Positions 15,821 to 58,221 of a DNA stretch of 64,000 bases are shown here, in pieces. Location of the stretch: NCBI GenBank assembly GCA_016926395.1, contig JAFGOT010000014.1, positions 24,556 through 88,555 of the forward strand, written 5' to 3'. Position numbers and translations under genes: made by a program. Numbering within the stretch: the stretch's first letter is position 1; every line of letters starts with the position of its first letter. Under the pieces are notes generated by a model. That model worked only from the letters and a program-made list of their open reading frames with translations. It did not search any database and was not told where the DNA came from. The stretch is from Candidatus Woesearchaeota archaeon (lineage in GTDB: Archaea; Nanobdellota; Nanobdellia; Woesearchaeales; SKGA01).

Positions 15821-16538
15821 TATTTTTTGGCTCTAGTTCTGCGTATAGTTCTTGTCCCCACTCTTGGATATCCGTAAATGCTAAACCCGCATTTTTGTAA
15901 ACCCAGTCAATTTCTTCAGAGATTTTTTTTACTGCTTGTTTATCATCTGTTTTTATTGCTGATTCATAACTATTGGAGAAACCATTATTTGTGAAATTTA
16001 TCGAACCTAGAAATGCGTGTTCATTATCTATGACATAAACTTTAGAATGAATTAAATATCCTCGCCCTCCATTTTCATCTTCTCTACTACTAAATATTTT
16101 TAGTTTGAATATTGGTTTGTATTTGTATTCGTTTGTTCTCATAGTAAAGAATATTATTGCTGATATTATTGCTCCTAAAACTAGAATTAATAATGCTGGT
16201 GCTGCGAAAGATAAAAATAACATAAACATACCTATTCCTGAGCTTATCCAGAATCCGTTTTTTCGAGTTTGAACTTTTTGGTCATGGATGATTTGTTCTT
16301 GTTCTATAATTTCTGTAGGATCAAAACTATTATCTCTGTTATTTGCAAGATTATCAGATGTTATTAATGTAATTTTAACCCCTTTTTTGTGGAGTTTAAT
16401 TAATTCTCTTATATAATTTGTCGACAAATATGGAGAAACTATTTTAACTTCTTTTTTGGCTCTTTGTATTACATTGAGGCAATGAGAACCCGCGTCTCGA
16501 CCTAAGAAGATTGAACAGTTGGCTTTGTTTATGAACAT
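15792..16538 (-). CDS. phospholipase D/HKD-family protein (Nuc-like) with internal TM hairpin
   Basis: HSKVYVIDNEHAFLGSINFTNNG = HxK(x)4D(x)6GSxN; single HKD motif; two hydrophobic helices mid-protein. Confidence 0.6.
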   Translation of the reverse strand: MFINKANCSIFLGRDAGSHCLNVIQRAKKEVKIVSPYLSTNYIRELIKLHKKGVKITLITSDNLANNRDNSFDPTEIIEQEQIIHDQKVQTRKNGFWISSGIGMFMLFLSFAAPALLILVLGAIISAIIFFTMRTNEYKYKPIFKLKIFSSREDENGGRGYLIHSKVYVIDNEHAFLGSINFTNNGFSNSYESAIKTDDKQAVKKISEEIDWVYKNAGLAFTDIQEWGQELYAELEPKNSGWRFMSDE

Positions 16539-23027: not shown

Positions 23028-23705
23028 ATGAGGATATTAAATGTAGATGCTCCGCTATGGTTTATACAGTGTGAGATAGGAATTCAACTAATTTTTGCCA
23101 TCGTAACGCTTCTAGTGGCTTTTTATGCATACAGAGTGTATAGAATTGCTAGACAAAAAAATTCTTTTTATCTTGGCGCCGGATTCTTAAGCATAAGCAT
23201 CGCATACTTCATACAAGCTTTTTTTAACTTTTTATTACTAAGACGAGTGACGACTTGTGGTTTCTTAAGTTTCATGGCAGGACACCCTGTTCAGTCAACA
23301 ATGACTTTAAGTGTATTGGTGGTTTTTTTACACATGGTGTTTATGGTGGCAGGATTTTCAGTACTATCATATATAACACTAAAAGAAAGAAACATAAAAT
23401 CATTTTACTTAATACTTGCATTATCTATTGCATCGCTTGTTTTTGCAGCAAATATGTCGATAATGTTTTATGTCTTACTAACAATAATGTTAGCATTTAT
23501 TACAATACAGTATAGTTTAAGGTTTAACAAAAAACCAACTACAGATACATTCATCGTGTTCTTAGGTTTTGGCATGGTGTTTTTAGGAACAATACAACTA
23601 GCACTGGCATCAGCTCTTGGTGCACTTTACGTTTCAGGTCACATAGTAACTTTAGCAGGTTATTTTTTACTATTAATCAATTTAATGAGAGTGGTTAGAA
23701 AATAA
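23028..23705 (+). CDS. hypothetical polytopic membrane protein (~7 TM)
   Basis: Hydrophobicity pattern only. Confidence 0.4.
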   Translation: MRILNVDAPLWFIQCEIGIQLIFAIVTLLVAFYAYRVYRIARQKNSFYLGAGFLSISIAYFIQAFFNFLLLRRVTTCGFLSFMAGHPVQSTMTLSVLVVFLHMVFMVAGFSVLSYITLKERNIKSFYLILALSIASLVFAANMSIMFYVLLTIMLAFITIQYSLRFNKKPTTDTFIVFLGFGMVFLGTIQLALASALGALYVSGHIVTLAGYFLLLINLMRVVRK

Positions 23706-23801: not shown

Positions 23802-24095
23802 GTGAGTAAAAAACGAGGTCGTTTACAAATAATTTATGACATATTACAGGCAGTTCGAGCTAAAGGCGGAACTATAAAACCAACTCACTTATTATACAAA
23901 TCAAACTTATCTCATCAAATGATGGGTGAATACTTAAAAGAATTAATGGGGAAAAACTTCATAAAAGAAGAAGTGGGACCTAAAGGAAAATCAAAAGTTT
24001 ATGTTCTAGCACCAAAAGGTTATGACTATCTAACTGAATACAAAACAGTAACTAGATTTGTAGAATCATTTGGATTAGAAGATGAAGAAGTTTAA
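23802..24095 (+). CDS. small winged-helix DNA-binding protein
   Basis: Basic N-terminus and helix pattern IIYDILQAVRAKGGTIKPTHLLYKSNLS typical of archaeal wHTH regulators. Confidence 0.45.
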   Translation: MSKKRGRLQIIYDILQAVRAKGGTIKPTHLLYKSNLSHQMMGEYLKELMGKNFIKEEVGPKGKSKVYVLAPKGYDYLTEYKTVTRFVESFGLEDEEV

Positions 24096-26092
24096 ACCAT
24101 AACAACATCGTGTTCTGATTTTATACCATAAATAAATACATAATTCCAAAATATTCCTTTCCATCGACCAATTTTTACAGCAAAACCTGCACGACGAAAT
24201 TCTGCTCTTAGTTGATCAAGGTTATTAGACCAAGAAGAGTTAGGAATAAAACCAAAGAAGTCACTGAATTCAACAAAACAAATTTCTCCATGTTCAGGAA
24301 GGGTTTGAGCCATATCTTTTAAGACTAGATGAATATTTTGAATATAATCAAGAGAACCGATTGAAATGATAGCATCAACTTCGTGAATACTTGGATGAAG
24401 ACGACTAATAAGATGTTCATCATGGATTGGTTCAATATTTACTATTCCTTTTTTCTTAGCACGCTTCTTGATAATTTCAACATTTCCTTCGGATAAATCA
24501 ACAGGAATAACTTTACCTTGAGGGCCAACAACATTTGCTAAGTCAAGACTTAAAGTTCCAACAGTAGCATGAAAATCAACAACTGTCTTGCCATGTAAAT
24601 CTTTAAACTCTCCAATAATTTTTTTACGAAGACTTCTTGGAAGATTATACTCCTCAAAGAAAACCGCGAATCGAGCAAAACGATTATTCATTTTTCTAGT
24701 CGCTTCAGGATTATAAAATAAAATAAGCAATACGTAAACAGGAATACCAACAGCAATTAAACTAACTGCTTTCCAAATAAGATGAACTTCTCCAGTCAAA
24801 CGCATATATGAGAAAATAAGTAACCCAAAGATACCAACAAGAATAAACGGTCCAATACTTCCAAAAGGGAGTTTGAAAGGACGTTCAAGTTCTACATACT
24901 TTTTTCTAAAAATAGGGATGGTTATCATTGTCAAACTAAGAACCACAAGAACCAAAAGTAAGAAAACTTCATGAATTAATTTGTATGGATCATGATGATG
25001 TCTCATGTATAAAAAAAACATGAAAGCAGTAAAAATGGAGATTGCTATGCTTTGAAATAAAATACTTCGGTGAGGGGTTTTGAATTTTTTGTGAAGCTCT
25101 GTAAAACTTTCAAGTAAAAGACGGTCTCTTGCTAAACTTCTAAGAAGGTTAGGACCGATGAAAATCCAGACTAGAGCGGGTGTGATAATCATAAATGCAG
25201 TGCCTAAAAATAGTGCTTGCTGAGCTATAGTTCCGTGCCAAAGAGTACTTAGAATATCTTTGTGAGGTATTAGGGCTGAAGAATATTTATTAATTGGAAA
25301 CATACCAATAGAACCAATAACGTAGATTAAAGTGGTTACTGCTGCAACTGATAGTGCTGCTATGATTGCTTTAGGAATGGTTCGTCTAGATTTTGCTTCT
25401 TCTGATAAGAATGTGATAATTTCCATTCCCATAAAGGCCTCAGAAATAATAAATGTTGTAGCAAATAAAATAAGAAGACTAAACCCTGAGGTCTGACCAA
25501 ACAAACTAAAAAAATTACTAACCGCACCAGTTGAACTAAGAGAGATTGCTTCGATATTAAAAAATAACGGAAGAATCTGAAGGACTACTACGGACACTGT
25601 AATTATTGATAGAATGACAAGAACTAACTTGTTTAAAGTTAATCCTCTAAAAACTAGGAAGTTAAGAAGAGCAATGATTGCAATACCAACTGCAAGTTTA
25701 AACAAATAATCCATCATGGTATTTGCAGGATAAAAATATTCTAAAGCCCAAACAACAGCTAAACTAGCACTGATGTTTCCTGCAATCCAAGAAGTCCAAC
25801 CAACAATGAATGCCGTGAAGTGACCGTATGCTTTTTTTGCATAAACATACAGGTCGCCTGCTTTTGGAAACATAGAAACCAGTTCTGCTAACGCCATAGC
25901 AATATAAAGACCAATACCAAAAGTTACAAGCCAAGCAATAAGCGATCTAGCGCCCATCATTTGAACACCAAGACCTGGAAGATATGTTAACGAGCTTGCA
26001 AAAATAGCGTTAAGAGTGATAAGAAAAATAACTCCAAAACCAACTTTTCTTCTAGTTGGCACTCCTTCAACTACGCCCTCGTTTTCAATCAT
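24092..26092 (-). CDS. amino acid/polyamine (APC) permease fused to C-terminal class I SAM-methyltransferase-like domain (motif I degenerate)
   Basis: ~12 TM APC-like N-domain. The C-terminal ~200 aa has a Methyltransf_11-like pattern (VVDFHATVGTLS..., IHDEHLISRLHPSIHEVDAIISIGSL) and is homologous to the C-terminus of 30880-32788. Confidence 0.7.
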   Translation of the reverse strand: MIENEGVVEGVPTRRKVGFGVIFLITLNAIFASSLTYLPGLGVQMMGARSLIAWLVTFGIGLYIAMALAELVSMFPKAGDLYVYAKKAYGHFTAFIVGWTSWIAGNISASLAVVWALEYFYPANTMMDYLFKLAVGIAIIALLNFLVFRGLTLNKLVLVILSIITVSVVVLQILPLFFNIEAISLSSTGAVSNFFSLFGQTSGFSLLILFATTFIISEAFMGMEIITFLSEEAKSRRTIPKAIIAALSVAAVTTLIYVIGSIGMFPINKYSSALIPHKDILSTLWHGTIAQQALFLGTAFMIITPALVWIFIGPNLLRSLARDRLLLESFTELHKKFKTPHRSILFQSIAISIFTAFMFFLYMRHHHDPYKLIHEVFLLLVLVVLSLTMITIPIFRKKYVELERPFKLPFGSIGPFILVGIFGLLIFSYMRLTGEVHLIWKAVSLIAVGIPVYVLLILFYNPEATRKMNNRFARFAVFFEEYNLPRSLRKKIIGEFKDLHGKTVVDFHATVGTLSLDLANVVGPQGKVIPVDLSEGNVEIIKKRAKKKGIVNIEPIHDEHLISRLHPSIHEVDAIISIGSLDYIQNIHLVLKDMAQTLPEHGEICFVEFSDFFGFIPNSSWSNNLDQLRAEFRRAGFAVKIGRWKGIFWNYVFIYGIKSEHDVVMV

Positions 26093-30229: not shown

Positions 30230-30769
30230 ATGATGAAAAATATGAAAGGACAAGCAGCTATGGAGTTCTTAATGACCTATGGTTGGGCAATTCTTGTTGT
30301 ACTATTAGCAATTGGTGCTCTAGCAGCATTCGGTGTATTTAATTTAGACAAATACGCAGCATCAACTTCAGGTTTTGAAGGACAAAAAATGGCTGCAGTA
30401 AACGATGGTATGGTAATTAGTTTATCTGGCAATTACGTTGAAATCGCTTTAACAAACCAAGTTGGAACATCTGTAACATTACCTTTAACAGGTACTTTAG
30501 TTCCTGAACCAGGTACTGTTTGTACATTAAATCCTGCTGGTGCTGTTACTGCAACTTACAAAGATCCTGCAACAGGAAACTATACTGCTTTGGATTCAGC
30601 TACTATTCTTAGACAAGGAGATACTTTTGTAGTGCGATGGTCTTGTAATGGTGCAGCAAGTGCATCTCAAGGAGACGCATTCGAAGCAACTTTAACATTC
30701 GATTACATCAACGTTGAAACTGGTCAATCTAGAACAATGACTGGAACAACTAGAGGACGATACGAATAA
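30230..30769 (+). CDS. archaeal type IV pilin-like protein (class III signal peptide), candidate major pilin
   Basis: MMKNMKGQAAMEFLMTYGWAILVVLLAIGALAA is the classic KGQ cleavage site plus hydrophobic helix; small Thr/Gly/Ala-rich beta domain. Confidence 0.7.
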   Translation: MMKNMKGQAAMEFLMTYGWAILVVLLAIGALAAFGVFNLDKYAASTSGFEGQKMAAVNDGMVISLSGNYVEIALTNQVGTSVTLPLTGTLVPEPGTVCTLNPAGAVTATYKDPATGNYTALDSATILRQGDTFVVRWSCNGAASASQGDAFEATLTFDYINVETGQSRTMTGTTRGRYE

Positions 30770-30879: not shown

Positions 30880-32788
30880 ATGGAAGAAGGAGCACAATTA
30901 TCATTTCCAGTAATATTGCTAATCACAATAAATAGTATACTGGGGACTGGAATATTTTTTCTTACCTGCAGTAGGTGCTAGAGAGGCAGGTTTGTTTGCT
31001 ATTATTTCTTGGCTTATAATGGGTTTGATTGCTATAATGTATAGTATGGTTTTTGGTGAATTGGTTAGTCGTTATCCAAAAGAAGGTGGTGTTTTTGAAT
31101 ATGCAAAGGAGGCGTTTGGATTCTTCCCTAGTTTTTTGCTTGGTTGGATGACTTTAATTGCAGCTAATGTAACTATTGCAATGCTTATGGTTGGGGCAAT
31201 AAAATATGTCGGTCCAAACTTGAGTAATTTATTCATAGCAGGAATAAGTATTCTATTTATTTTGGCATTTAATTTTGTTGCTTTTAAGGGGTTGAAAACG
31301 GGCAAAGTAATGTTATTAACTTTTGCAGGCATAACATTAGTTGCTGTTTTGGGAATATTAATTCCTGGACTAATAAACTTTAATCCTGCTAATTTCACTA
31401 ATTGGTTATCTCATGAAAGTTTTGCTGGTTTTGGATTTAATGTTTCAGGGTTAGTAGGTGGCTCAGTGATTATTTTTGGAACTATTTTTTTTATTGCAGA
31501 AACTTTTTTCGGTTGGGAAACTGTTACTTTTTTAGCAGAGCAAGTTAAAAACCCAAAAAAAATAATGCCTAATGCATTAGTCAAAGGAACTGTTTTGATT
31601 TCGATTTTTTCATTATTATTCGTGATTGCAAGTAAAAGTATTTTACATTGGAGTGTTTTAGCAAATTCTTCAACTCCTTTAGCTGATCTTGCAAGTGCTG
31701 TTTATGGACCTGCAATGATTCCTGTGTACAGCATCTTAGTTTATCTAGCGATAATTGGTAGTGTGGCGGGGTGGATAGTTGCGGCTCCAAATCTACTTGT
31801 AGCTTTGGCAAAAGATAAATTATTTATTCCTTCTTTTGCAAAAAAGCACCCTAAAACAGGAACTCCTTACAAAGCAATATTATTTCAAACAATTGTAACT
31901 TCTGTATTGGTAATAATTGGAGCTGGAAGTTATGAAACTCTTCTTCACTTATTAGTTCCTTTAGTTTTGGTTTTATATGGCAGTGTTGTCTTAAGTTTAT
32001 TATATATTAGAAAGAAAAACAAAGAGTTTGATGGATATAAAGCTCCTGGTGGTTTAGTATTGCCCATTTTTCTTTTACTATTCACTTTAGCTTTGGTTTT
32101 GATGTGGGGTTTTCAAGAGCATAATGCTATAGAAACTGTTGAAGTATTAATCACTTTTCTAGTTTTAGGAATTCCTGTATTTTTGTTGATGAATTTCCAT
32201 CACAATCCTCATGCAAGTGTTACTTTTCAGAATAAAACAGTTGGACTTTCGAAATTTCTGGAAAGGTTATTTTTGCCTAAAAAAATACGAGTTAGACTTC
32301 TTGAAAAAATGGAGAATCACCACAAGGTGTTGTTTTTAGGGGCCGGATCTGGAATTTTAATAAAAGAATCTTCTATTCCCAAAGAGAACATAATTGTGAT
32401 TGAACATTCTGAAAGTTTAGCTAATCATTTAAAAAACCGTTTTCCGACAATAGCGGTTATTCATGATGAACACGCAGTATCAAGATTACACCCTGACATA
32501 AAAAAAGCTGATGTTGTTGTTAGTGTAGGGATGCTTGCTCATATACAAAGTTTATCGATGCATCTAAAACAGTTACATAATATCCTTCCAGAGAATGCTT
32601 TGATACGTTTTTTTGACTATTCAAAATTTTATAAAGTAATATCTAATAATATTCCCGAAATTGATGAGCTAAAGAAAGTTTTTAGAGAAAACGGATTTTC
32701 AGTTAGGGTTGAAGAAATAAAAGGTATTTTTTGGAATTATTTGATAATAGAAGGCGTTAAAACTGATTTAGATGTTGTTTATATGTGA
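30880..32788 (+). pseudogene. APC permease-SAM methyltransferase fusion (paralog of 24092-26092), frameshifted in T6 run
   Basis: N-terminus MEEGAQLSFPVILLITINSILGTGIFF is in frame 1 from the ATG at 30880; the rest, LPAVGAREAGLFAIISW..., is in frame 2 (ORF-track ORF from TTG 30992). The switch is at tttttt 30955-30960; T5 would restore GIFFLPAVG. C-terminal domain has intact motif I VLFLGAGSG. Confidence 0.7.
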
Positions 32789-32837: not shown

Positions 32838-33257
32838 ATGAGGAGGGTGAGATCTAGTTCTGGTCAGGTGGCAATGGAGTACTTGATAGTATTCTTGATG
32901 GCTTTTTTTATGACCATGCCTCTTATAATAATCTTTTACACGCAATCAAATAACTTTGAAGACGATATTTCTGTGGCTCAAGCAAATAAATTAACTTCAG
33001 AACTAATCGATGCTGCAGAAGAAGTTTATTTTCTTGGGAGTCCATCTCAAAAAACGGTTGATGTGACGTTTCCAAATGGATTGCAAGAAATAACCATTGA
33101 ATCAAATTCGCTCATATTAAACATGACATCAAAAGGAGATGACTATTTGGTTTATGGAGATACTTTGGTTAATTTAACGGGTATTTTACGAACAAGCCCG
33201 GGAAGAAGACCGGTAAAAGTTGTTGCGACAGGAACTGGAGTTCAAATAACTGATTAA
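32838..33257 (+). CDS. pilin-like protein with class III signal peptide
   Basis: SSGQVAMEYLIVFLMAFFMT. Confidence 0.6.
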   Translation: MRRVRSSSGQVAMEYLIVFLMAFFMTMPLIIIFYTQSNNFEDDISVAQANKLTSELIDAAEEVYFLGSPSQKTVDVTFPNGLQEITIESNSLILNMTSKGDDYLVYGDTLVNLTGILRTSPGRRPVKVVATGTGVQITD

Positions 33258-33287: not shown

Positions 33288-33698
33288 ATGATACATACTA
33301 AAAAAGCACAAGTTTCGATAGAATTTATCATTCTTTTAACGATGAGTGTCTTTATGATAATAACTTTTATGATTGCAATAAAACATGTATCTGATCAAAA
33401 ATTATTAAAAAAAACATTAAACGAACTAGATGACTTGGGCAAGAGTGTTCAACAAGAATTGATGCTTGCATCACAATTAAATGATGGTTATGTTCGAGAA
33501 ATATACATTCCAGCAAGGCTTTATGGAGTGGATTATTCTCTAAATACAAGCGCAGTCTCTGGAACGGTGATGTATCTAAATATTTACTACGAAGGTGTTG
33601 AATTATTTTATTTAATTCCCTACATACAAGGAGATGTAAAAACAGGACTTAACACAATATCAAAAAATAACAATACGGTAATGGTATCTCAAACATGA
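33288..33698 (+). CDS. pilin-like protein with class III signal peptide (Ala at -1)
   Basis: TKKAQVSIEFIILLTMSVFMII. Confidence 0.5.
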   Translation: MIHTKKAQVSIEFIILLTMSVFMIITFMIAIKHVSDQKLLKKTLNELDDLGKSVQQELMLASQLNDGYVREIYIPARLYGVDYSLNTSAVSGTVMYLNIYYEGVELFYLIPYIQGDVKTGLNTISKNNNTVMVSQT

Positions 33699-34204
33699 TG
33701 AAACGAAAAGGACAAGTGTTTACACTGGATTTTTTTATTGGCTTATTTGCATTCATTGTATTATTAGTTATAGGTTTTACACAATTATTTTCTTTCTTAC
33801 CAAATTCTGATTTTAAACAATTATATGGTGATGCAACTTATTTATCAAATGTTTTAGTCGATTCAGGTTATCCTACTTATTGGAATTCAACAAACGTTCT
33901 TCTTCCAGGACTCGCTGACAATCATCGATTAAATGTTACTAAATTACACGAGTTCGAAAATATTTCTTATACTAACAGTAAATTATTATTTCATATCACT
34001 TCTGAATATGTTTTCTTTTTCAAGAATCAAACGGATTATTTGAATTTATCAAATTGTACTTATGGCTATCCAATATCTGTTAACATAACTAGTTGTGAGC
34101 CTAATTTATTATCTTTTAATTATAAAAACTTAGTAAAAACTCAAAGACTATTGGCTTATGATGGGAACATTGTGACAATGGTGATTTACACGTGGAAAAG
34201 ATGA
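33695..34204 (+). CDS. pilin-like protein with class III signal peptide
   Basis: MMKRKGQVFTLDFFIGLFAFIVLLVIGF; 4-nt overlap with the previous gene. Confidence 0.6.
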   Translation: MMKRKGQVFTLDFFIGLFAFIVLLVIGFTQLFSFLPNSDFKQLYGDATYLSNVLVDSGYPTYWNSTNVLLPGLADNHRLNVTKLHEFENISYTNSKLLFHITSEYVFFFKNQTDYLNLSNCTYGYPISVNITSCEPNLLSFNYKNLVKTQRLLAYDGNIVTMVIYTWKR

Positions 34205-36873
34205 ATAATAAAGGAATATACTACTCAATGGATGCTTTATTAGCAGGACTTCTATTTGTAGGTGTAATTTTATTATTATTTCAAAACAGTTTTTATGAAC
34301 CAAATACTGATCAACAAAATTTCTTGTCCCAGGATTTATTAGCATCACTTGGATCGATAACTTTAGGAGAATCAAATTATCCGATGATTACTGCAGAATT
34401 ATCTTCAGGGCAATATGTTGATGCTAACAACACCGTACTTGAGCTTATTGGAATTTATTGGGCATTAAATCAAACGCAAAATGCAACAAAGATTATAACT
34501 CGCTTTGTAAATGGAACCGTTCCAGATCAACTTTACTTACAACTAAATCTCGATGGTGATGACTTGTATCCATACCAAAACTCAACAACTCCAACAAACA
34601 TAATTGGTGGGCGGAGAATGATAACTGGAATCGCGCAAGGAAAACCTTTAACTGGTTTTAGTTCTTCAGCATATTTAAAAAAAGTACGAAACAAAAAAAC
34701 ATCTTCTTATGCTTATTTTGGAGGATATTATGCTCAAGGAAATATTTCAACAACACTAAATCTTCCAAGTGACTTTTCATCATCAAGAATAATTTCTGCT
34801 CGAATAAATATTGAAACTCCTGGAACATTTGATTTGCTGATAAATGGCAATGTTTGCTTAAATGACGTAACTGGTTTAACAACAACTGTTACGTCATGGG
34901 ATTTAATAAATTGTAATTCTAGCTTTAAACCAAACAAAAATAATATTTCATTTATTTATTCAAGTGAACTTAATGTATCTGCAATATCTGGTGGTTTAAT
35001 AAAAGTAACATACACAACAGACACCTTAAAAGAAATAATTCCAACAGGGTATAAAAGATATTACTTGCCAGAAATTCAAGGATTCATAAACGTTTATGAC
35101 GCTTTCTCTGCGCAAGGATTAATTGATTCTTGGAATTTGAATATGACTTTTTACAACGAATACGATACTTTTGTGACTATAGGAAATGAAACCATTTTTA
35201 TCGCACCTGGAAGTAATACAACACAAAACATATTTTTCTCAAGAAATAATGCATCCTTGCCACCAACAGAAATTCCACTAAGGGTTGGAACAACAAATCT
35301 TTCAAACATAACAATTGTTCAATCAGGTGATCCATCTGACTCGTTTTTAGTAACTGATGTATCTGGAAGTATGGATGATTGTGGATTATATTATACAGAA
35401 AATGTTACCTATTGTGGTTATGATTATAAATTTTGGTTCTGGTGGACTTACACTGAGTGTCCTTATACAGGATCATGTGTTTCAAATGAATGTGGAGGAT
35501 CTACAACGACTCAAAACCATGTTATTTATGATAAAACAGTTTCAACTTGTAACAAAACTTTGATGGAGTTAGCAAAAGAAGCTGATGATTTATTTGTTGA
35601 TGTGGTTCTTGGAAACTCAACGTTAAATGAAATTGGATTGATAGATTTTTCAACTAATGCTAATACTCCAACTGATCTTACAAACATTCCAGGTGTATTG
35701 CACAGCGAAATATCAACTTATTCTGCAGGAGGAAATACTTGTACTTGTTGTGGTATAAATAGAGCAAAAGATTTGCTTTTATCTTCAGATGATGATAAGT
35801 TTATGGTTGTACTAAGTGATGGAGAGCCAACCGCTTACTGTAATGGATTTAGTGATTATACTGGTTCAACTGGAGATAACACTCAGGCAAGAAATGATGC
35901 TATTGCGTCTGGACAAGAAGCTTGTGCAAATAACATAACTGTTTATACAATTGGATTTGGAGAGGGAATGTCTGCTCAAGGACATGATATAATGAGACAA
36001 ATAGCTTGTAATGATTCATTATATTATAATGCTTCTAATGCTGGAGACTTAGCAGAAATTTATGAAAATATTTCTCAAGATATTTTAGTTGCAGCAAATT
36101 ATTCATCACAAACAATAAACATAGTTGGAAATTTTACAATCGCAAATTTATCAAAAGATTCATACATTGATTTGTACTACACACCTATTGTCCAAGAAGA
36201 TAATCAAGGTAAATTATCGATGGTGTTTGAATCAGCTCCATTTGGTGGTTGCACATCGTCTGTAAGCATACCAGGAGGGGTGTTAATTGAGGATGCATAT
36301 GTAACCTCTTTCTCAAGTAATCATTGGACGAAAAAATTAGATGTAAATGGTATTAATGTATTTAATTTATCGGAGTATGGATCTGATTATACTTTACTTG
36401 GGGATCCTTTCATCATACAAGTTCCATCTGCAGTTTTAATTCCTGGAGCAACGAATAACTTTACACTTGAAGTTGGCGATAACCCTGTTAACATTTCAAG
36501 TTGTTCACCAAATAATACTTTTATCTACACTGCTTTAATTAATGCTTCAACACCGCGAGGAGAAACTTATGAAGAACATGAAGGTTGTACTTGGATTGTA
36601 GAATCTGAAACAGGAAAAAATTCCACTATAAAAATTCCTAAAGATTATTCAGGTCCAAATAATTGTTCGTATACTTCCGCAAGCATTAGTTATAATGTAT
36701 TAGATGCATACGACTCTGCGACTCACTTCTTATTATCGCAATTAGATCCTGACAATAATGGAAAAATAATTGTTGACTTAGCAGAATCAGATTTAGAAAT
36801 AACAATAACTTTGGTTAGTGGAATTCCATATCTTTGGGGTCCCACTCTTGTAGGAACTCAAGTAGGTAGTTAA
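34192..36873 (+). CDS. large pilin-like protein (893 aa) with von Willebrand factor A domain, candidate pilus adhesin
   Basis: N-terminal NNKGIYYSMDALLAGLLFVGVILLLF class III-like signal; MIDAS motif LVTDVSGSMDD (DxSxS) near aa 390; many N-x-S/T sites; Cys-rich segment. Confidence 0.6.
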   Translation: MEKMNNKGIYYSMDALLAGLLFVGVILLLFQNSFYEPNTDQQNFLSQDLLASLGSITLGESNYPMITAELSSGQYVDANNTVLELIGIYWALNQTQNATKIITRFVNGTVPDQLYLQLNLDGDDLYPYQNSTTPTNIIGGRRMITGIAQGKPLTGFSSSAYLKKVRNKKTSSYAYFGGYYAQGNISTTLNLPSDFSSSRIISARINIETPGTFDLLINGNVCLNDVTGLTTTVTSWDLINCNSSFKPNKNNISFIYSSELNVSAISGGLIKVTYTTDTLKEIIPTGYKRYYLPEIQGFINVYDAFSAQGLIDSWNLNMTFYNEYDTFVTIGNETIFIAPGSNTTQNIFFSRNNASLPPTEIPLRVGTTNLSNITIVQSGDPSDSFLVTDVSGSMDDCGLYYTENVTYCGYDYKFWFWWTYTECPYTGSCVSNECGGSTTTQNHVIYDKTVSTCNKTLMELAKEADDLFVDVVLGNSTLNEIGLIDFSTNANTPTDLTNIPGVLHSEISTYSAGGNTCTCCGINRAKDLLLSSDDDKFMVVLSDGEPTAYCNGFSDYTGSTGDNTQARNDAIASGQEACANNITVYTIGFGEGMSAQGHDIMRQIACNDSLYYNASNAGDLAEIYENISQDILVAANYSSQTINIVGNFTIANLSKDSYIDLYYTPIVQEDNQGKLSMVFESAPFGGCTSSVSIPGGVLIEDAYVTSFSSNHWTKKLDVNGINVFNLSEYGSDYTLLGDPFIIQVPSAVLIPGATNNFTLEVGDNPVNISSCSPNNTFIYTALINASTPRGETYEEHEGCTWIVESETGKNSTIKIPKDYSGPNNCSYTSASISYNVLDAYDSATHFLLSQLDPDNNGKIIVDLAESDLEITITLVSGIPYLWGPTLVGTQVGS

Positions 36874-36874
36874 G

Positions 36875-37858
36875 ATGAAATTAAAGATTAAAAAAATGAA
36901 CAACAAGGGATTCACATATTTAATCGCTGTATCTTTTCTAATTGCCACACTTATAGTTGTATATTTAAGCGCTACTGATTATGGATTTCAAGATCAACAA
37001 GAATTGTACAAGAACCGAATTGTTGCAATGGATAATTTTGTGAGTGACTTTAATCAAGACGTGCATCGAGCAAGTTATATTGCTTCATTTAGAACTTTAC
37101 TTTCTTTAGAAGATTATGTTGCTGTCAATGGAGAATTCTTTAACAATACTGAAGATCAATTCAAAGAAACATTTTATTATGGTCAAATAAACAGATCTGA
37201 AGCTGAACTTATGAATGGTTCTAGTTTTGAAGATTATTTATCCAGGGTTAATGTTGTGGCTGAAAAAATTGGAATACACTCAAATGTTACTGTTACAGAT
37301 ATAACTCTTTCACAATCTGATTTTTGGTCCATAGATGTGGTGATAACTGCTCTTGTTAATATTACTGATAACCATAACATTGCATCTTGGAGTTTTGAAA
37401 AAAATTATTCAACAAACGTTCCAATATATGATTTAAGAGATCCTCTTTATAGTACTTTTACATTCAATCGAGTTCCAAACACAATAAGAAAACTAGATGT
37501 TCCTTACTTGGTTAATGGAACAGACACTTTTAACTTAGAAACGCACATTAATGGTTCTTATTATCTAGAATCAACTGATGCGCCAAGTTTCCTACAAAGA
37601 TTTGAAAATAATTTGAGTCCAAGTCCTTATGGTATAGAAAGTATTGTTAATGTTGGTTTAATCTCAGCCCAAGAAGTTGGTGTTTGCGAAGATTGTATCA
37701 AAGTTGATTATATGTATTTTAATGGTTTAACCGATACCAAACTTTGTGATGTTCAAAACATTAATCCAAATACTTACTTTGTAATTCCTCTAAATCAAAA
37801 CGAAACTTATGAAGTTTCTAATTTGACTTTTTCTACTGGTGGAAGTTGTAATACTTAA
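36875..37858 (+). CDS. pilin-like protein with class III signal peptide
   Basis: NNKGFTYLIAVSFLIATLIVVYL; starts 2 nt after the previous stop. Confidence 0.55.
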   Translation: MKLKIKKMNNKGFTYLIAVSFLIATLIVVYLSATDYGFQDQQELYKNRIVAMDNFVSDFNQDVHRASYIASFRTLLSLEDYVAVNGEFFNNTEDQFKETFYYGQINRSEAELMNGSSFEDYLSRVNVVAEKIGIHSNVTVTDITLSQSDFWSIDVVITALVNITDNHNIASWSFEKNYSTNVPIYDLRDPLYSTFTFNRVPNTIRKLDVPYLVNGTDTFNLETHINGSYYLESTDAPSFLQRFENNLSPSPYGIESIVNVGLISAQEVGVCEDCIKVDYMYFNGLTDTKLCDVQNINPNTYFVIPLNQNETYEVSNLTFSTGGSCNT

Positions 37859-37978: not shown

Positions 37979-39124
37979 ATGAAGAATATAACGACAGGTA
38001 TTGACAGATTGCTCCAGTTAGTAGAAGAGCGTAAAAAGATATCTGCTGAAACTGCCGCAAAAGAATTGAATCTTGGTAAAGATGTGATTGAAGAATGGGC
38101 AGAAATATTAGAACAAGAAAAAATAGTAAATTTATCATTCAAATTCTCAAAAATGCATATTGAAGCGAAAAAAATAACTGAGAGAACAGTATTTGATTCT
38201 GCAAAACAAATATCTTCACAAAAAGAAGCATTTCATAGAAAGATTGAGTCGACAATAAAATCAATCGACAACGAATCGGCAGGTTTTGAAGAAATAAGAT
38301 CTGAGTTTGAAAAAATCCAAGGTCACATTAAAGACGAACTAGAAACCGTAAGGAAAGAAATGAAAGAGCTAGAACATTTCGATGCCCTGAAAAAAAATAT
38401 TGAGAAAGACATTCAGACACAAAAAAAAGATTACGAATTATTTACTAAAGCTTATGATGAAGAGATGAAGACGTTTGAAAAAAATTATTCATCTTCAATT
38501 GAAAAACTAAAAAAAGAACAAGACACACTAAAAAAACTTCAGGATTCAATAGTAGGTCTTAGAAGCGATAAACAAGAAATTGAAAAAATAATAAAAGAAT
38601 CTTTACAACGATTAAAAGACGTTGAAAAGAAAGCAGATGAACAAATAGTTGATATGAAACAAACAGAAAAAACTATTGATAAATTGAAAAAAGAAATTGA
38701 TGGTCTGTCAACAAATATTAAAGTTTCACGTGCTAAGAACCTAAAAACACTTGCTAAAATTGTTGGTGAAGGAAGAGAGAGAATAACTAAAGATCATGAA
38801 AACCTTCTAAAGAATGCACAATCCAAAGTTACTGAATTAAAAGACTATGCTGATGCTGGAGAAAAAATATACAAAAAATTCTCTGATAAATTTATGAAAA
38901 AAATCGAAACAGGAGATTTAATCTCTGAAATCGAAAAAGAAAAAAACGACTTAAAAGATGAATTGATTGAACTTGATAAAAAAGTTCAAACTTTTAATGC
39001 ACTTAAGGGGAGTGTTGAAGTAAAAGATCAATTCAAAGAAATTGAAGCAAAAATATTTTCTTATGAAGAAAAAAGACACAAACTAAGCGATAAAATAAAC
39101 AAATTGCTTGGGATGATGAAGTAA
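37979..39124 (+). CDS. wHTH + long coiled-coil protein, homolog of 55478-55936 (N-domain)
   Basis: GIDRLLQLVEERKKISAETAAKELNLGKDVIEEWAEILEQEKIV aligns with GVDELIRYLRTKGKVSLKEASTHLNIPEQTLQLWLDFLVEERII in the second pilus locus. Confidence 0.5.
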   Translation: MKNITTGIDRLLQLVEERKKISAETAAKELNLGKDVIEEWAEILEQEKIVNLSFKFSKMHIEAKKITERTVFDSAKQISSQKEAFHRKIESTIKSIDNESAGFEEIRSEFEKIQGHIKDELETVRKEMKELEHFDALKKNIEKDIQTQKKDYELFTKAYDEEMKTFEKNYSSSIEKLKKEQDTLKKLQDSIVGLRSDKQEIEKIIKESLQRLKDVEKKADEQIVDMKQTEKTIDKLKKEIDGLSTNIKVSRAKNLKTLAKIVGEGRERITKDHENLLKNAQSKVTELKDYADAGEKIYKKFSDKFMKKIETGDLISEIEKEKNDLKDELIELDKKVQTFNALKGSVEVKDQFKEIEAKIFSYEEKRHKLSDKINKLLGMMK

Positions 39125-39167: not shown

Positions 39168-40847
39168 TTGCCAACTAATAAAAAAACTAAAGCTGTTAAA
39201 AAATCTACAAAGAAAACCGCTAAAAAAAGTGTTAGCAAAAATTCTAAATCAAAATCATTAGCTTCAAAAAGTAAAGCTAAACAAAAGACATCTAAGTTAG
39301 AAACAGAACACGTTGGAACTCAAACGCATGAAATTGATGACTATAAATACTTATCTGGCGATATACCTATTCGAATAACAATAAAAAAACACCCTCACGA
39401 ATTTGTTCCGATATATGACTTAGAAATAGCATCTATTAGTGATACAACAAAAATAATGCTTGAAAAAATAAGACAAGAATTAATCAAAAAAGTAAGTCTT
39501 GGAATTGCAGATCTTAGTGATGTTAAAAAATCAGATGTGGTTGAAGAACGATTTGAAGAATTGATTCAAATCCTAGTTGAAAAATACTTACCTGATTCCG
39601 ATCTTGAAACAACACATTTCTTAACTTCTTATCTTCGTATTAAAAGTCTAGGGCTTGGAAATTTAGAATTAATAATGGATGATCACCAACTAGAAGAAAT
39701 TGTTATTAATCAAGCAAACGAACCTGTTTGGATATTTCATAAAAAATATGGTTGGCTAAAATCAACAACTTATCTAAAAGATGAAAATCAAATCAGACAT
39801 TTTGCAAGTATCATTGGAAGACGAGTAGGGCGTCAAATAACTGTTTTAACACCTCTTCTTGATGCTCACCTAAATGGTGGGGATAGGGTTAATGCAACAC
39901 TTAGTCCTGTTAGTACTGCAGGTAACACCATAACAATTAGGAAGTTTTCACGAGACCCTTGGACAATAACTAAGTTTCTAAAAGCAGGAACCATATCTGA
40001 AGAAGCGGCTGCTCTAGTGTGGTCTGCAATACAATACGAGATGAGTGCATTAATCGTAGGTGGAACCGCATCTGGGAAAACAAGTGCGCTAAACGTATTT
40101 GCAAGTTTCTTCCCACCAAACCAGAGAATAATTAGCATTGAAGATACAAGAGAAATTAGGCTTCCAAAATTTCTGCATTGGGTTCCTTTAAACACTGTGA
40201 TGTCAAACGCTGAAGGAAAAGGAGAAATAAGTATGGGTAACTTACTTGTTAACAGTTTAAGGATGCGTCCAGACCGAATACTTGTAGGTGAAGTACGTAG
40301 AAAGCAGGAAACAGAAACATTATTTGAAGCAATTCACACAGGTCACTCAGTATACGCAACATTTCACGCAAACAACGCACAAGAAGCAGTTGATCGTTTA
40401 ACAAACGCACCACTTGATGTTCCAAAGATTATGCTTCCAGCGATTTCAATTCTAGTCGTTCAATATAGGAACCGAAGAAATGGAAAACGAAGAACTTTCC
40501 AAATAGCAGAGATAACTTCAAAAGGAGATCCGAATGTGTTGATGCAATACGATGCTAAGAATGATGTATTAAACCCTGCTTCAAGAATGATTGAAACTTT
40601 ACTTAAAGGAAAATCGGCGTTCTATGATACTATAAAATCCTTTACTGGAATGGATAACAAAGAATTGATCCAAGACCATAATGAAAAAGTAAAAATTCTA
40701 AAATACTTAGTTGAGCACGATATAACTTCAGTTGATGGTGTTGGTCGAATAATGGCTGAATATTATACTGATAAAGAAAATTTAATGAGATATGTGAATA
40801 CTAATAAAGAATTCCCTATGAACGTTGCGAAAGATGAGGCCGTGTAA
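39168..40847 (+). CDS. type IV pilus/archaellum assembly ATPase (FlaI/TadA/PilB-like) with Lys-rich N-terminal tail
   Basis: Walker A GGTASGKTSALN, Asp box IISIEDTREI, His box LVGEVRRKQE...HTGHSVYATFHANN. Confidence 0.9.
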   Translation: MPTNKKTKAVKKSTKKTAKKSVSKNSKSKSLASKSKAKQKTSKLETEHVGTQTHEIDDYKYLSGDIPIRITIKKHPHEFVPIYDLEIASISDTTKIMLEKIRQELIKKVSLGIADLSDVKKSDVVEERFEELIQILVEKYLPDSDLETTHFLTSYLRIKSLGLGNLELIMDDHQLEEIVINQANEPVWIFHKKYGWLKSTTYLKDENQIRHFASIIGRRVGRQITVLTPLLDAHLNGGDRVNATLSPVSTAGNTITIRKFSRDPWTITKFLKAGTISEEAAALVWSAIQYEMSALIVGGTASGKTSALNVFASFFPPNQRIISIEDTREIRLPKFLHWVPLNTVMSNAEGKGEISMGNLLVNSLRMRPDRILVGEVRRKQETETLFEAIHTGHSVYATFHANNAQEAVDRLTNAPLDVPKIMLPAISILVVQYRNRRNGKRRTFQIAEITSKGDPNVLMQYDAKNDVLNPASRMIETLLKGKSAFYDTIKSFTGMDNKELIQDHNEKVKILKYLVEHDITSVDGVGRIMAEYYTDKENLMRYVNTNKEFPMNVAKDEAV

Positions 40848-41642
40848 ATGAGCTATAAGCAACTAGCAAAGAAATTTCCCGGACTAAAAGAAAAATTAAA
40901 ATCTGCTGGAATAGTTGATACTCCAGAAGAATACGTAAAAAAAACATTCATGACTGCTGCAATGTTTGCAGGAGGACTAACTGCTGTTGTATTAATAATA
41001 TTTCAAGCATTATGGACTTTAATAGTTCCATTTATTGTAGGTGTTCCAATATTTTTATACTTGATGAAATATGTAGATGTTAGAATAGTACAACTACAAA
41101 GACAGATAGATGAAGAAATTGTTTTTGCAGGAAGATTCTTAATTATAGAATTACATTCAGGAGTTCCAATTCACGAAGCTTTTGAAACACTTGCAGCTAA
41201 TTATGAAACAGTTGGTGTTTATTTTGGAGAAATAGTTGATAAGATGTATTTAGGAACGGCACTTGAAGAAGCAATAAATGATGTTCTCTTAAATTCGCCA
41301 TCTCCAACACTTAGAAGAATATTGTGGCAATTATTAAATTCTATGAAAACAGGAAGTGATGTTGCACCTGCACTCTCTTCTGTAATTGAACAAATTGTAA
41401 AAGAACAAGATATAGCAGTAAAAGAGTATGGTAAAAAACTCAATCCTTTGGCAATGTTTTATATGATGCTTGCTGTTATAGCGCCAAGTTTAGGAATTGT
41501 AATGCTTGTGGTTCTTGCAACATTTGTAGGTTTTAGTTTGAGCTTAACAGTTCTTTTAGCAATTGCTGGATTAATTGGATTTGTACAATTAATGTTTATG
41601 ACAATAATGAAATCATCACGACCACCCATTAGTATGGGTTAA
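40848..41642 (+). CDS. TadC/FlaJ-like pilus platform membrane protein
   Basis: Follows the ATPase by 0 nt; TM-soluble-TM layout of the T2SS-F family; homologous to 58222-59031. Confidence 0.7.
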   Translation: MSYKQLAKKFPGLKEKLKSAGIVDTPEEYVKKTFMTAAMFAGGLTAVVLIIFQALWTLIVPFIVGVPIFLYLMKYVDVRIVQLQRQIDEEIVFAGRFLIIELHSGVPIHEAFETLAANYETVGVYFGEIVDKMYLGTALEEAINDVLLNSPSPTLRRILWQLLNSMKTGSDVAPALSSVIEQIVKEQDIAVKEYGKKLNPLAMFYMMLAVIAPSLGIVMLVVLATFVGFSLSLTVLLAIAGLIGFVQLMFMTIMKSSRPPISMG

Positions 41643-41651: not shown

Positions 41652-42899
41652 ATGGGATTATTAAAAAACGCAGTGGAAAAATACAAAACGGCAAAAATTA
41701 AGTTAGATTTAGCGAGAGCTAAGAAAAAAGAATTGGAAGAAGAAAGAAGTCATCTTATCTACAACGCAAAAAAATCAATGGAGAAAAATTCTTCTAATGA
41801 AGCAAACTCGGAGAAAAAAACCGAAAAGAAAAAAACAACCACTCCGATTAAGAGCAGAGCAATAATTAGTAAATTTGATAAGAAAAAAACAGTTCAAAAA
41901 AGAAGATTCTCCAGATTTCTAGAAGATTTTCTTGAAAAAGCAGGGATAGAAAAAAAGCCAAAAGAAATAAGTAAATCAGTAATTTTTGTTTCAATAATCT
42001 TAACATTCATTTCCATAATTGCATTTATTATTTATGGATTAACTAATTTTTTGTCATCTAATGCTTATTTTGTCTTTATACCTTTAATCATAATTCTTGG
42101 TTCGGTATTTTTTTATATTGCAAGTTTGATAACTTTATTTATTTACTTTGACTTTAAAATTTATCAACGAACAGGACAGATAGAAGATGTTCTGCCTGAT
42201 TTTCTACAGCTTGCATCTGCGAACATAAGTGCGGGAATGCCAATTGATAGGGCATTGTGGTTTGCTGTAAGGCCTCGTTTTGGAGTGTTGGCAAAAGAGA
42301 TGGAAGAGATTGCAAAAGCCACATTTACCGGAAGCGAACTTGATGAAGCATTGATTAAGTTCACACAAAAATATAAATCACGATTACTAAAAGAATCAGT
42401 CAATCTAATAATCGCCGGATTAAAATCAGGAGGAGAATTAGGAGATTTACTGAATAAAATTAGTGAGAACATTCAACAAACAAAAATAATGAGAAAAGAA
42501 ATAAGTGCAAGCGTTATGACTTATGTTATTTTTATAGGGGTGGCTTCAGTTCTAGCAGCACCTTTGTTATTTGCTTTAAGCTCTCAATTATTGCATGTGG
42601 TAACTGGAATATCGGGTGACTTTGATACATCTGCAATGGAAGACATGCCTTCTGGCGTGATGCCAATATCATTTAATTTTGGATCGGGAGAAAGCGTAAA
42701 ACAATCAGATTTTAAGATATTTTCATTTACTTTAATAGTAATAACTTCTTTCTTTGCGGCTGCCATAATAGGTGTAATCCAAAAAGGTAATGCAAAATCC
42801 GCATTAACTAAGTTTCCAATGTTTCTGGTAATTTCTTTAATAATATTCTATGTTTCTAACAAATTTTTAGGAATACTGCTTGGCGGCCTCATGGGGTAG
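41652..42899 (+). CDS. second TadC/FlaJ-like membrane protein
   Basis: T2SS-F-like segment LPDFLQLASANISAGMPIDRALWFAVRPRFG; homologous to 59021-60070. Confidence 0.65.
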   Translation: MGLLKNAVEKYKTAKIKLDLARAKKKELEEERSHLIYNAKKSMEKNSSNEANSEKKTEKKKTTTPIKSRAIISKFDKKKTVQKRRFSRFLEDFLEKAGIEKKPKEISKSVIFVSIILTFISIIAFIIYGLTNFLSSNAYFVFIPLIIILGSVFFYIASLITLFIYFDFKIYQRTGQIEDVLPDFLQLASANISAGMPIDRALWFAVRPRFGVLAKEMEEIAKATFTGSELDEALIKFTQKYKSRLLKESVNLIIAGLKSGGELGDLLNKISENIQQTKIMRKEISASVMTYVIFIGVASVLAAPLLFALSSQLLHVVTGISGDFDTSAMEDMPSGVMPISFNFGSGESVKQSDFKIFSFTLIVITSFFAAAIIGVIQKGNAKSALTKFPMFLVISLIIFYVSNKFLGILLGGLMG

Positions 42900-42963
42900 A
42901 AAGCTTTAAAAAGGACTTTGAAGTCTCTGATTCTTACAAGCGTAACTATTGCGTTTGTTGTTT

Positions 42964-53779: not shown

Positions 53780-54316
53780 ATGGTGAGAAATCTTAGAAAC
53801 TCTAGAAAAGGAGCCTATTTTTTTGTACTTGATGCTATAATTGGCATTCTAATATTTGCAACAACTGTTTTTATAATTGCTGGCTTTAATACGTTTAAAC
53901 CCGCGACAGGAGCTCTTTCTCAACAACTAGATTTATTATCGGCTGACCTTTATGAAACTGAACTTCGAAATGTTGATATCACTGCTGATTTTTTCTTAGA
54001 TTTAAAGCAAAACCATCCTTTATATGATCCTTATTTGACGGTTGATGAATTTGTTTATTTTTTAGTTTTATCAAGTGAAACTGATAAAGCATCTTTATTG
54101 GTTGGAAATTTAACTAATTGGCTTGTTCCTTCTTATGGTATTAACTATTCAATAACTTATGGATCGAACATAGTAACTGTATTTTATAGGGACTCGACGA
54201 TAACAACATATGAAGATAGTAGATCAAGTTTAGCTAGAGAAAAAGTTACTGTTTTAGGTTCAAATATGACTAATTTTATTGAACCCGGATTTTCTTCGGT
54301 GGTGATTTGGAGATGA
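53780..54316 (+). CDS. pilin-like protein with class III signal peptide
   Basis: NSRKGAYFFVLDAIIGILIFATTVFIIAGF. Confidence 0.6.
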   Translation: MVRNLRNSRKGAYFFVLDAIIGILIFATTVFIIAGFNTFKPATGALSQQLDLLSADLYETELRNVDITADFFLDLKQNHPLYDPYLTVDEFVYFLVLSSETDKASLLVGNLTNWLVPSYGINYSITYGSNIVTVFYRDSTITTYEDSRSSLAREKVTVLGSNMTNFIEPGFSSVVIWR

Positions 54317-55419: not shown

Positions 55420-55477
55420 TTCTTCACTGCAAAATGGTTAATAAACTTTATAACTCTTTTTTAAAATAAATATAGCC

Positions 55478-55936: not shown

Positions 55937-55941
55937 AAAAT

Positions 55942-56697: not shown

Positions 56698-56703
56698 TTT
56701 AAA

Positions 56704-58212: not shown

Positions 58213-58221
58213 GTAAATAAT

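Follow-up and report, generated by a model that had tools for sequence, protein, structure and literature searches.

A pilin-like protein with a von Willebrand factor A domain in type IV pilus loci of DPANN archaea, a candidate modular adhesin

Introduction

What role does a large protein with a von Willebrand factor A (vWA) domain play when it is encoded among small pilin-like proteins in an archaeal pilus operon? The question is raised by a 64-kb stretch of DNA from Candidatus Woesearchaeota archaeon (assembly GCA_016926395.1, contig JAFGOT010000014.1), which was analyzed over its whole length and is referred to here as the window. It has a G+C content of about 32% and codes for the archaeal housekeeping proteins FttA/aCPSF1, a family B DNA polymerase (PolB), and a proteasome subunit. 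The vWA protein gene lies at 34201 to 36873 on the forward strand. We consider, with a probability of roughly 0.6, that its product is a modular minor pilin of an archaeal type IV pilus that displays a vWA adhesin at or near the pilus tip. An initial annotation of the region had proposed a pilin-like vWA adhesin within a pilin operon. That interpretation is supported by the present analysis, the tip location and the adhesin function being the elements that we infer.

The DPANN archaea represent a large share of archaeal diversity, and most of them appear to be attached to other cells. To our knowledge, the molecules that contact the host in these archaea are essentially unknown. The protein family described here is a widely conserved candidate, a putative pilus-borne and metal-dependent adhesin with a diversifying ligand face. 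A vWA pilin is not surprising in principle, and it gives a concrete, testable handle on host attachment by DPANN archaea and on the organization of tip complexes in archaeal pili.

The N-terminal signal and the location of the protein

The open reading frame (ORF) at 34192 to 36873 on the forward strand is real. The initial annotation had read it as 893 amino acids long, which corresponds to a start at the first GTG, at 34192. A second possible start, the ATG at 34201, shares the sequence ATGA with the stop codon of p169, the gene before it, and gives a product of 890 amino acids. The ATG start with its ATGA overlap is the more likely of the two, and the GTG start is disfavored. The 890-residue product is 100% identical to an NCBI entry annotated as 'VWA domain-containing protein [Candidatus Woesearchaeota archaeon]', and residues are numbered here from the ATG. 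Conservation was assessed over 77 non-identical homologs from species-representative genomes, which have a median identity of 33% to the window protein. An AlphaFold2 model of the full-length protein, built from 52 family members, has a mean predicted local distance difference test (pLDDT) score of 85.3 and a predicted template modeling (pTM) score of 0.62.

The protein starts with MNNKG/IYYSMDALLAGLLFVG, as quoted in the initial annotation, the slash marking the predicted cleavage site. Its leader and hydrophobic helix occupy residues 1 to 28 (34201 to 34284, forward strand). As seen in MNNKG/IYYSMDALLAGLLFVGVILLLF, a short basic leader ending in glycine is directly followed by a hydrophobic stretch of about 20 residues, with cleavage predicted after G5 and with D11 at position +6. 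The AlphaFold2 model has an N-terminal helix at residues 4 to 28. Across the homologs, position −1 is glycine, alanine or serine in 77/77, position −2 is lysine or arginine in 71/77, and an acidic residue, D or E, stands at +6 in 77/77. The N-termini of the family share a K/R followed by G/A/S, an aromatic-rich start, the acidic residue at +6, and a run of some 20 hydrophobic residues. Judged by sequence, these features together match a class III (prepilin) signal, so that the class III-like N-terminus first noted in the single protein is present and conserved throughout the family.

The protein is also rich in N-x-S/T sequons, as had been claimed, with 32 observed where shuffling at constant composition gives 15.1 ± 3.3 (z about 5). 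Three cytoplasmic proteins encoded in the window, the ATPase, PolB, and FttA, have sequon counts at the shuffled expectation. There are 18 cysteines in total, and 6 of these fall within residues 394 to 450, a cysteine-rich stretch that had been pointed out past the metal-binding motif described below. The combination of a basic leader and a single N-terminal transmembrane (TM) helix with the sequon excess and the conserved cysteines places the protein outside the cell. N-glycosylation and disulfide bonding are both probable on the same sequence features.

This location bears on a role as an ArnB-type regulator, that is, a cytoplasmic vWA protein controlling the expression or assembly of the filament. 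Archaeal surveys mention vWA proteins only as cytoplasmic regulators (PMC4858521; bioRxiv 10.64898/2026.04.22.720090), and one of them lists such proteins as regulators of archaeal type IV pili (Makarova et al., PMC4858521). ArnB (8s05) was matched by sequence (E = 0.035) and by fold (rank 21 in a Foldseek search), but the match covers only the generic vWA core, there is no FHA or ZnF partner, and there is no MoxR ATPase nearby. The N-terminal TM helix with its positive-inside leader, the twofold sequon excess, and the many conserved cysteines led us to reject a cytoplasmic regulator, and we attach a negligible probability to it.

The vWA domain, its metal site, and the inserted arm

Residues 376 to 635 (35326 to 36105, forward strand) are predicted with confidence, from the model, to adopt the Rossmann-like alpha/beta fold of a vWA domain. 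Pfam PF00092 matches residues 463 to 622 (E = 1.1e-8), scoring 35.9 bits where the cut-off is 23.8. Of the 52 relatives, 46 are matched by PF00092 and 49 by PF13519 (VWA_2). A Foldseek search against the Protein Data Bank (PDB) returned almost exclusively solved vWA domains, more than 40 of them at a probability of 1.00. The top matches were ITIH1, Mfa5, SpaC, the LapA vWFA domain, and TEM8, with E values from 4e-10 to 2e-7. The target-normalized template modeling scores of the vWA matches were 0.7 to 0.82, for example with the anthrax toxin receptors TEM8 (3n2n) and CMG2 (1sht).

The domain carries a complete metal ion-dependent adhesion site (MIDAS). The motif LVTDVSGSMDD, which the initial annotation had placed at about 35350 to 35380, corresponds to residues 383 to 393 and to nucleotides 35347 to 35379. 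Within it, the first MIDAS loop is D386-V-S388-G-S390 (35356 to 35370, forward strand), and D386, S388, and S390 are each kept in 76/77 homologs, with the adjacent M391 in 77/77. The MIDAS threonine, Thr513, is kept in 75/77 and is followed by C514-x-C516-C517 (35737 to 35751, forward strand), in which the cysteines are conserved in 73/77, 69/77, and 73/77, respectively. The last metal-site residue, Asp540, lies in the motif LSDGEP (35818 to 35820, forward strand) and is invariant (77/77), as is G541 (77/77), with C547 nearby in 75/77. The DxSxS...T...D set is thus retained in 75 to 77 of the 77 homologs, and this essentially invariant site is predicted from sequence to bind a metal ion. Variability within the protein is lowest in the MIDAS strand, at an entropy of 1.51 bits. 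Because the signal features and all of the MIDAS residues are kept across the 77 homologs, the observed features are not due to chance.

A cysteine-rich beta-hairpin arm, residues 394 to 453 (35380 to 35559, forward strand), lies between beta1 with MIDAS loop 1 and helix alpha1. In the AlphaFold2 model, beta1 (379 to 386) is followed by strands at 394 to 411, 414 to 421, and 437 to 453 and then by alpha1 at 454 to 472. The arm is seen to be an insertion from these strands, from the length of the Foldseek alignments (about 260 columns against vWA targets of about 185 residues), and from arm-less relatives, in which Pfam places DxSxS at position 1 of the profile. In the window protein the PF00092 alignment begins at profile position 26, past DxSxS, because the arm is inserted after the DxSxS loop. 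No region of the protein varies more than the arm, which has an entropy of 2.60 bits and 44% gaps. Conserved cysteines are also found in the arm, at C426, and after beta4, at C547, and, together with the C-x-C-C that follows the MIDAS threonine, they suggest that disulfides staple the three MIDAS loops together.

The arrangement resembles that of RrgA, SpaC, GBS104, and Mfa5, the vWA tip adhesins of sortase and type V pili. These proteins provide the best structural matches, with SpaC (6m48) and Mfa5 (6tnj), and they likewise have a vWA domain with an inserted arm beside the MIDAS, as in RrgA and SpaC, and flanking beta-sandwich domains. They differ in being polymerized covalently by sortase or by type V strand exchange, in lacking a prepilin signal, and in being exclusively bacterial.

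A conserved five-gene cassette in a type IV pilus locus

The vWA gene is the fourth gene of a cassette, p139-p136-p169-vWA-p327, all on the forward strand. The first gene, p139 (32838 to 33257), encodes an N-terminus of SG/QVAMEY and has a weak match to NCBIfam UpsB (E = 0.016). The product of the second, p136 (33288 to 33698), contains KKA/QVSIEF and matches the Pfam Class_IIIsignal model below its cut-off (E = 0.0017). The third, p169 (33695 to 34204), begins with RKG/QVFTLDFF and has 4-nucleotide ATGA overlaps with both of its neighbors. Its product has 7 sequons, compared with 2.4 ± 1.3 in shuffles. The fifth, p327 (36875 to 37858), starts one base past the stop codon of the vWA gene, and its product has NNKG/FTYLIAVSF at the N-terminus and 11 sequons against 5.3 ± 2.1. 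It has no Pfam match, and its family profile has no significant match among PDB sequences. The overlapping start and stop codons indicate a translationally coupled operon. A scan for sigma-70 promoters gave fewer sites than shuffled sequence, the sigma-70 model not being meaningful for an archaeon. The vWA protein is 5 to 6.5 times as long as the pilin-like neighbors of 136 to 179 amino acids. The earlier estimate of about 5 to 6 times stands for those neighbors and fails for the downstream 327-residue p327, relative to which it is only 2.7 times as long.

Upstream of the cassette, pil179 (30230 to 30769, forward strand) encodes a 179-residue candidate major pilin with the N-terminus MMKNMKG/QAAMEFLMTYGWAILVV. 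Members of its family are present in 72 of the loci analyzed, 45/48 of them have a class III-like N-terminus, and they scarcely vary over roughly the first 20 residues of the mature protein. There is no Pfam match to pil179, and its family profile gives no significant match to PDB sequences. A fusion of an amino acid permease with a C-terminal methyltransferase, at 30992 to 32788 (forward strand), sits between pil179 and the minor-pilin cassette, and a paralogous fusion is encoded at 24092 to 26092 on the reverse strand. Downstream, cc381 (37979 to 39124, forward strand) encodes a cytoplasmic coiled-coil protein with an N-terminal helix-turn-helix (HTH)-like segment. Its matches are to SMC/Rad50-type coiled coils only, and its family was found in 55 loci directly upstream of the assembly ATPase. 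The ATPase gene itself (39168 to 40847, forward strand) encodes a secretion ATPase of the type IV filament superfamily (Pfam T2SSE, E = 2.9e-32). It is followed by two platform genes, encoding 264 amino acids at 40848 to 41642 and 415 amino acids at 41652 to 42899 on the same strand (Pfam T2SSF, E = 1.5e-15 and 2.3e-14). A terminator-like hairpin at 42936 to 42958, past the last platform gene, may mark the end of the operon.

The setting in a pilin operon had been part of the initial annotation and proved to be conserved far beyond the window. Relatives of the vWA protein were found in at least 286 species-level genomes in a scan of one genome per GTDB species, and 80 of those loci were kept. 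They come from Woesearchaeota, Nanoarchaeota/Nanobdellota, Pacearchaeota, Aenigmatarchaeota, Nanohalarchaeota, and Altiarchaeota, so that the family spans six or more DPANN lineages, and they include metagenome-assembled genomes of Woesearchaeota with 'NC_groundwater' in their names. Synteny was compared over 84 loci, from the genome scan and from contig look-ups, by iterated hidden Markov model searches of their ORFs. The order p139-p136-p169-vWA-p327 is the same almost everywhere. In 63/74 loci the gene directly before the vWA gene is p169, and in 61/71 the one directly after it is p327. The complete set of five occurs in 49/61, and an ATPase gene is found within 10 kb in 28 of the 33 loci with full flanks. 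The p169 family has two size classes at one and the same cassette position, of about 150 to 200 and about 360 to 400 amino acids (loci L001, L003, L011 to L016, L021 to L023, L035, L038, L039, L056, L063, and others). A few records of the cassette carry labels outside DPANN, namely Alphaproteobacteria (L019), 'uncultured Methanosarcinales' (L008, L017, L024, L032, and others), and Euryarchaeota SM23-78 (L030), and these are probably artefacts of binning or labeling. In databases the family is annotated only as 'VWA domain-containing protein' or 'hypothetical', which hides its link to pili. No description of a vWA pilin from DPANN or other archaea was found in the literature consulted, whose coverage omits most papers from subscription journals.

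Each family in the locus has its own signature at the mature N-terminus. In pil179, p139, and p136, position +1 is glutamine and position +5 is glutamate (44/45, 53/56, and 57/61 members, respectively). In p169, glutamine at +1 is combined with D or E at +6 (69/72). The vWA protein has a hydrophobic residue at +1 and aspartate at +6 (72/73), and p327 has a hydrophobic +1 and no acidic residue anywhere from +1 to +10 (47/48). These family-specific signatures, E at +5, D at +6, or none, suggest an ordered tip complex of the bacterial kind in archaeal type IV pili, which would bear on how assembly is primed and on the shared ancestry of Epd-type and Tad systems. Archaeal Epd-type systems are regarded as the evolutionary origin of Tad.

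Paired platform genes are a hallmark of archaeal 'system 1', or Epd-type, loci (bioRxiv 10.64898/2026.04.22.720090), and the window locus, with one ATPase, two platform genes, and multiple proteins with class III signals, fits that definition. Two platform genes also occur in some DPANN loci of subsystem 4A (same preprint), and an assignment to that subsystem is possible, too. The locus of the Epd-type pili of Methanococcus maripaludis resembles the window locus: it likewise combines an ATPase with two platform genes and encodes several class III-signal minor pilins as well as large adhesin-like proteins. The large proteins of Epd loci carry DUF2341 or galactose-binding domains and not vWA (PMC4858521; bioRxiv 10.64898/2026.04.22.720090), and the comparison with the DPANN cassette is one of locus content.

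The sugar-binding proteins of the Sulfolobus bindosome are another group that carries archaeal class III signals. The locus could accordingly be read as encoding a short pseudopilus or a bindosome-like surface assembly, in which the signals dock proteins for the capture of substrates or metals or for contact with a host. Five of the six pilin-like genes are of the minor type, a second type IV filament locus is present in the window, and the ATPase matches the BasE bindosome model with E = 1.2e-42, far below the cut-off of that model. However, the same ATPase scores higher with the NCBIfam models for FlaI (251 bits, cut-off 550) and the TadA family (191 bits) than with BasE, and in most loci there is a candidate major pilin, whose N-terminus is extremely conserved. 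Pili-like filaments have moreover been imaged on ultrasmall cells from groundwater (PMC7906910). We regard a bindosome-like assembly as improbable.

A conserved carrier with exchangeable modules

The vWA domain is flanked by two further modules. The N-terminal carrier module, residues 29 to 369 (34285 to 35307, forward strand), is conserved, with a helical part at 37 to 103 and a beta-rich part at 112 to 365. When residues 1 to 372 were modeled alone, the pLDDT fell to 65 and the segments 127 to 178 and 276 to 299 collapsed. This loss of confidence indicates that the N-terminal region probably packs against the remainder of the protein. A Foldseek search with the separately modeled region gave LacZ N-terminal domains, BcsB, Vip3, and PorU, with E values of about 5e-5 and template modeling scores below 0.3, matches that support only a fold class, a jelly roll with an Ig-like sandwich, and imply no function. 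The C-terminal beta-rich module, residues 636 to 890 (36106 to 36870, forward strand), is modeled mostly with a pLDDT of 80 to 94 and ends in the motif IPYLWGP.

A profile of residues 1 to 372 matched 1,148 clusters at 50% identity among 1.84 billion representatives, 456 of them with an E value of 1e-30 or lower, and always aligned at the N-terminus of the matched protein. Among the best 150 matches to the carrier, 72 are 700 to 1,050 amino acids long, 53 are longer than 1,050, and 25 are shorter. The C-terminal motif is found in 57 of the 72 standard-length representatives. It is missing from the 25 shorter forms, which are therefore probably fragments. The longer forms retain the N- and C-terminal modules and have additional modules that split or precede the vWA domain, including Laminin_G_3, a ConA-like fold of the 3-keto-disaccharide-hydrolase type, F5/8 type C, CARDB, and a GH115_C-like module. 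One relative, P0241 (646 amino acids, at 865 to 2805 of locus L085), keeps the carrier module and the C-terminal end motif but has no vWA domain, and its gene holds the slot of the vWA gene in an otherwise equivalent locus with a p327-like neighbor. The longer forms and the vWA-less P0241 together identify the carrier as the conserved element and the vWA domain as its usual effector module. Tandem paralogs of the vWA gene occur in loci L042, L058, and L063, where extended forms of 1,194 to 1,402 amino acids, with the C-terminal module kept, stand beside a standard form of about 905, which suggests an expanded adhesin repertoire in some genomes.

A different function of the metal site can also be considered, in which the MIDAS engages a partner subunit such as p327 or p169 through an acidic residue of that subunit and thereby locks the tip complex. 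vWA domains act in this way in some other multisubunit assemblies, and the top structural matches include Mfa5, in which the part with the vWA domain is a component of a tip complex. The two candidate partners are constant immediate neighbors, and the MIDAS and the core of the protein are conserved far more strongly than one would expect of a site tracking diverse hosts. A conserved MIDAS surrounded by variable loops is, however, also normal for ligand-binding vWA adhesins, and complex formation seems to be independent of the vWA domain, as P0241 lacks it and still keeps a p327-like neighbor. In our estimation an intracomplex lock is very improbable.

Comparison with known pilus-associated vWA proteins

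By analogy, the closest counterpart of the archaeal vWA protein is PilB of Streptococcus sanguinis, a modular type IV pilin with a vWA module that is a proven metal-dependent adhesin (PMC8179133). Both proteins join a class III-type signal and a hydrophobic helix to a large vWA module whose MIDAS is complete, and the genes of both lie among those for minor pilins in type IV pilus loci. PilB is probably located at the tip. Both follow a logic of carrier and effector module, with lectin-type alternatives to the module in paralogs. The design of a carrier with a grafted effector module has been described in bacteria (PMC8179133), and the DPANN family would extend the modular-pilin principle to archaea. 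The two proteins differ in that PilB is bacterial, with the N-methylation motif IPR012902, E at +5, and a small canonical pilin module, whereas the archaeal protein has D at +6, no detectable pilin head, and additional modules of 340 residues on the N-terminal and 255 residues on the C-terminal side. A Pfam scan of the archaeal protein gave no match corresponding to IPR012902, PilB was absent from the top 50 Foldseek matches, and outside the vWA core the two proteins have no sequence similarity.

The initial annotation had compared the protein to PilY1 and TadG. PilY1/PilC of the type IVa pili of Pseudomonas and Neisseria is likewise a large, non-core, pilus-associated protein, which in P. aeruginosa has an N-terminal vWA domain and is encoded in a minor-pilin operon. 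Current models place it on a tip complex made up of four or five minor pilins, with roles in adhesion and surface sensing. Unlike the archaeal protein, it is not a pilin and has a Sec signal, and its family is defined by a C-terminal beta-propeller (IPR008707/PF05567). The propeller was not matched by Pfam in the query or the 52 relatives, and there was no PilY1 structure in the Foldseek top 50. TadG, of the bacterial Tad/Flp systems, begins with a hydrophobic segment, which precedes a vWA domain, and is encoded with the pseudopilins TadE and TadF, an ATPase, and the two platform proteins TadB and TadC. It is much smaller and lacks the flanking beta-modules, and a function as an anchor has been proposed for it. 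The TadE/TadG-like domains PF07811 and PF13400 had no Pfam match in the query or the 52 relatives. Membership in the PilY1 or TadG family was rejected, since Pfam gave no match to the defining non-vWA domains, only the vWA part being shared with TadG. The comparison holds in the sense that the archaeal protein may work like PilY1, and possibly like TadG.

TadG provides the model for another explanation, in which the protein is an uncleaved, membrane-anchored (type II) accessory at the base of the pilus, where it would anchor or prime the filament or stabilize the assembly complex. TadG-type vWA proteins have been hypothesized to anchor pili in the membrane (Makarova et al., PMC4858521). The N-terminus fits a signal anchor as well as a prepilin signal, there is no match to the Pfam Class_IIIsignal model and no pilin head domain, and the presence of the vWA-less P0241 in the same slot implies a conserved core function that needs no vWA domain. 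However, the strict K/R-G/A/S and the fixed acidic residue are typical of peptidase recognition and of packing within a filament and would be unneeded in a plain anchor, and the inserted lectin, discoidin, and CARDB modules, together with the hypervariable arm, suggest outward binding of ligands. We consider a basal anchor unlikely.

A proposed mechanism and the points that weigh against it

If the vWA protein is a minor pilin, the prepilin peptidase would cut after Gly5, and the freed hydrophobic helix, with aspartate at +6, would enter the filament core together with those of p139, p136, p169, and p327. The products of the cassette may form a priming or tip complex, like GspH-K and FimU-PilVWXE in bacteria. 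In these bacterial complexes the subunit without E5 (GspK or PilX) is the one at the very tip, where no subunit above it needs to have its N-terminus neutralized. Since p327 has no acidic residue, as in the bacterial tip subunits, it would probably cap the tip, and the vWA protein would adjoin it. The vWA domain would thus be displayed at or near the pilus tip, where a ligand on a host cell or other surface could supply the acidic group that completes the coordination of the divalent cation in the MIDAS. Specificity might be tuned by the variable cysteine-rich arm and, in paralogs, by lectin-type inserts. A pilus of this kind would attach the episymbiotic archaeon to its host, and images of groundwater show pili-like appendages connecting ultrasmall cells to hosts (PMC7906910).

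The adhesin-type modularity of the family, as seen in the inserted modules, the vWA-less relative, and the variable arm, was counted in favor of a modular tip adhesin. Several observations weigh against it. The acidic residue is at +6 and not at the canonical +5, and position +1 is hydrophobic instead of glutamine. Pfam PF04021 (Class_IIIsignal) gave no match to the vWA protein at E ≤ 0.1, a model that is short, with 27 positions, and insensitive. No globular pilin fold was found in the protein with the AlphaFold2 model and Foldseek, the pilin-like part being the N-terminal helix only. A subunit of 890 amino acids is very bulky for a filament and would have to be placed at its tip or its base. 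It is also conceivable that the vWA domain serves the assembly of the complex and not external binding. Finally, no prepilin peptidase was recognized in the 64-kb window in searches of Pfam and NCBIfam with most of the other ORFs of at least 110 amino acids. A 225-residue protein with seven predicted TM helices, encoded at 23028 to 23705 on the forward strand, has no Pfam or NCBIfam match. It was weighed as a possible divergent prepilin peptidase and was left unassigned.

A broader proposal, which we advance tentatively and hold to be doubtful as a whole, is that the five-gene cassette encodes a pilus-tip complex used throughout DPANN and equivalent to the priming complexes of bacterial minor pilins, with acid-less p327 as the cap, in the place of GspK or PilX, and the vWA subunit as the primary host-recognition adhesin, whose arm and swapped inserts set the host range. 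If that were true, the host specificity of uncultivated DPANN archaea could be read, and tested, through a single gene family.

Other features of the window

A second, paralogous type IV filament locus occupies 53780 to 60070 on the forward strand and has no vWA gene. It encodes a 178-residue pilin-like protein with the N-terminus SRKG/AYFFVLDAIIG, which is the motif of the vWA protein, and a 370-residue pilin-like protein with weak similarity to p327 (E = 0.011). A small HTH protein of this locus matches the N-terminus of cc381 (E = 8e-10), and a 251-residue gene product has no assigned function. The ATPase is 48% identical to that of the first locus and is accompanied by two platform genes.

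Elsewhere in the window, a 258-residue protein encoded at 4166 to 4942 (forward strand) has a class III-like N-terminus, MVCGKKG/QITLFVIIGIIILLVAG. The next gene, at 4944 to 8972 on the same strand, encodes a secreted protein of 1,342 amino acids with 18 cysteines. Its sequons are strongly depleted, with 2 against 14.1 ± 3.3 in shuffles, the opposite of the excess seen in the vWA protein. On the reverse strand, 15792 to 16538 encodes a phospholipase D-like nuclease that resembles NucT/DrmC (NCBIfam E = 7.5e-11, below the cut-off). It has two predicted TM segments and could be related to defense.

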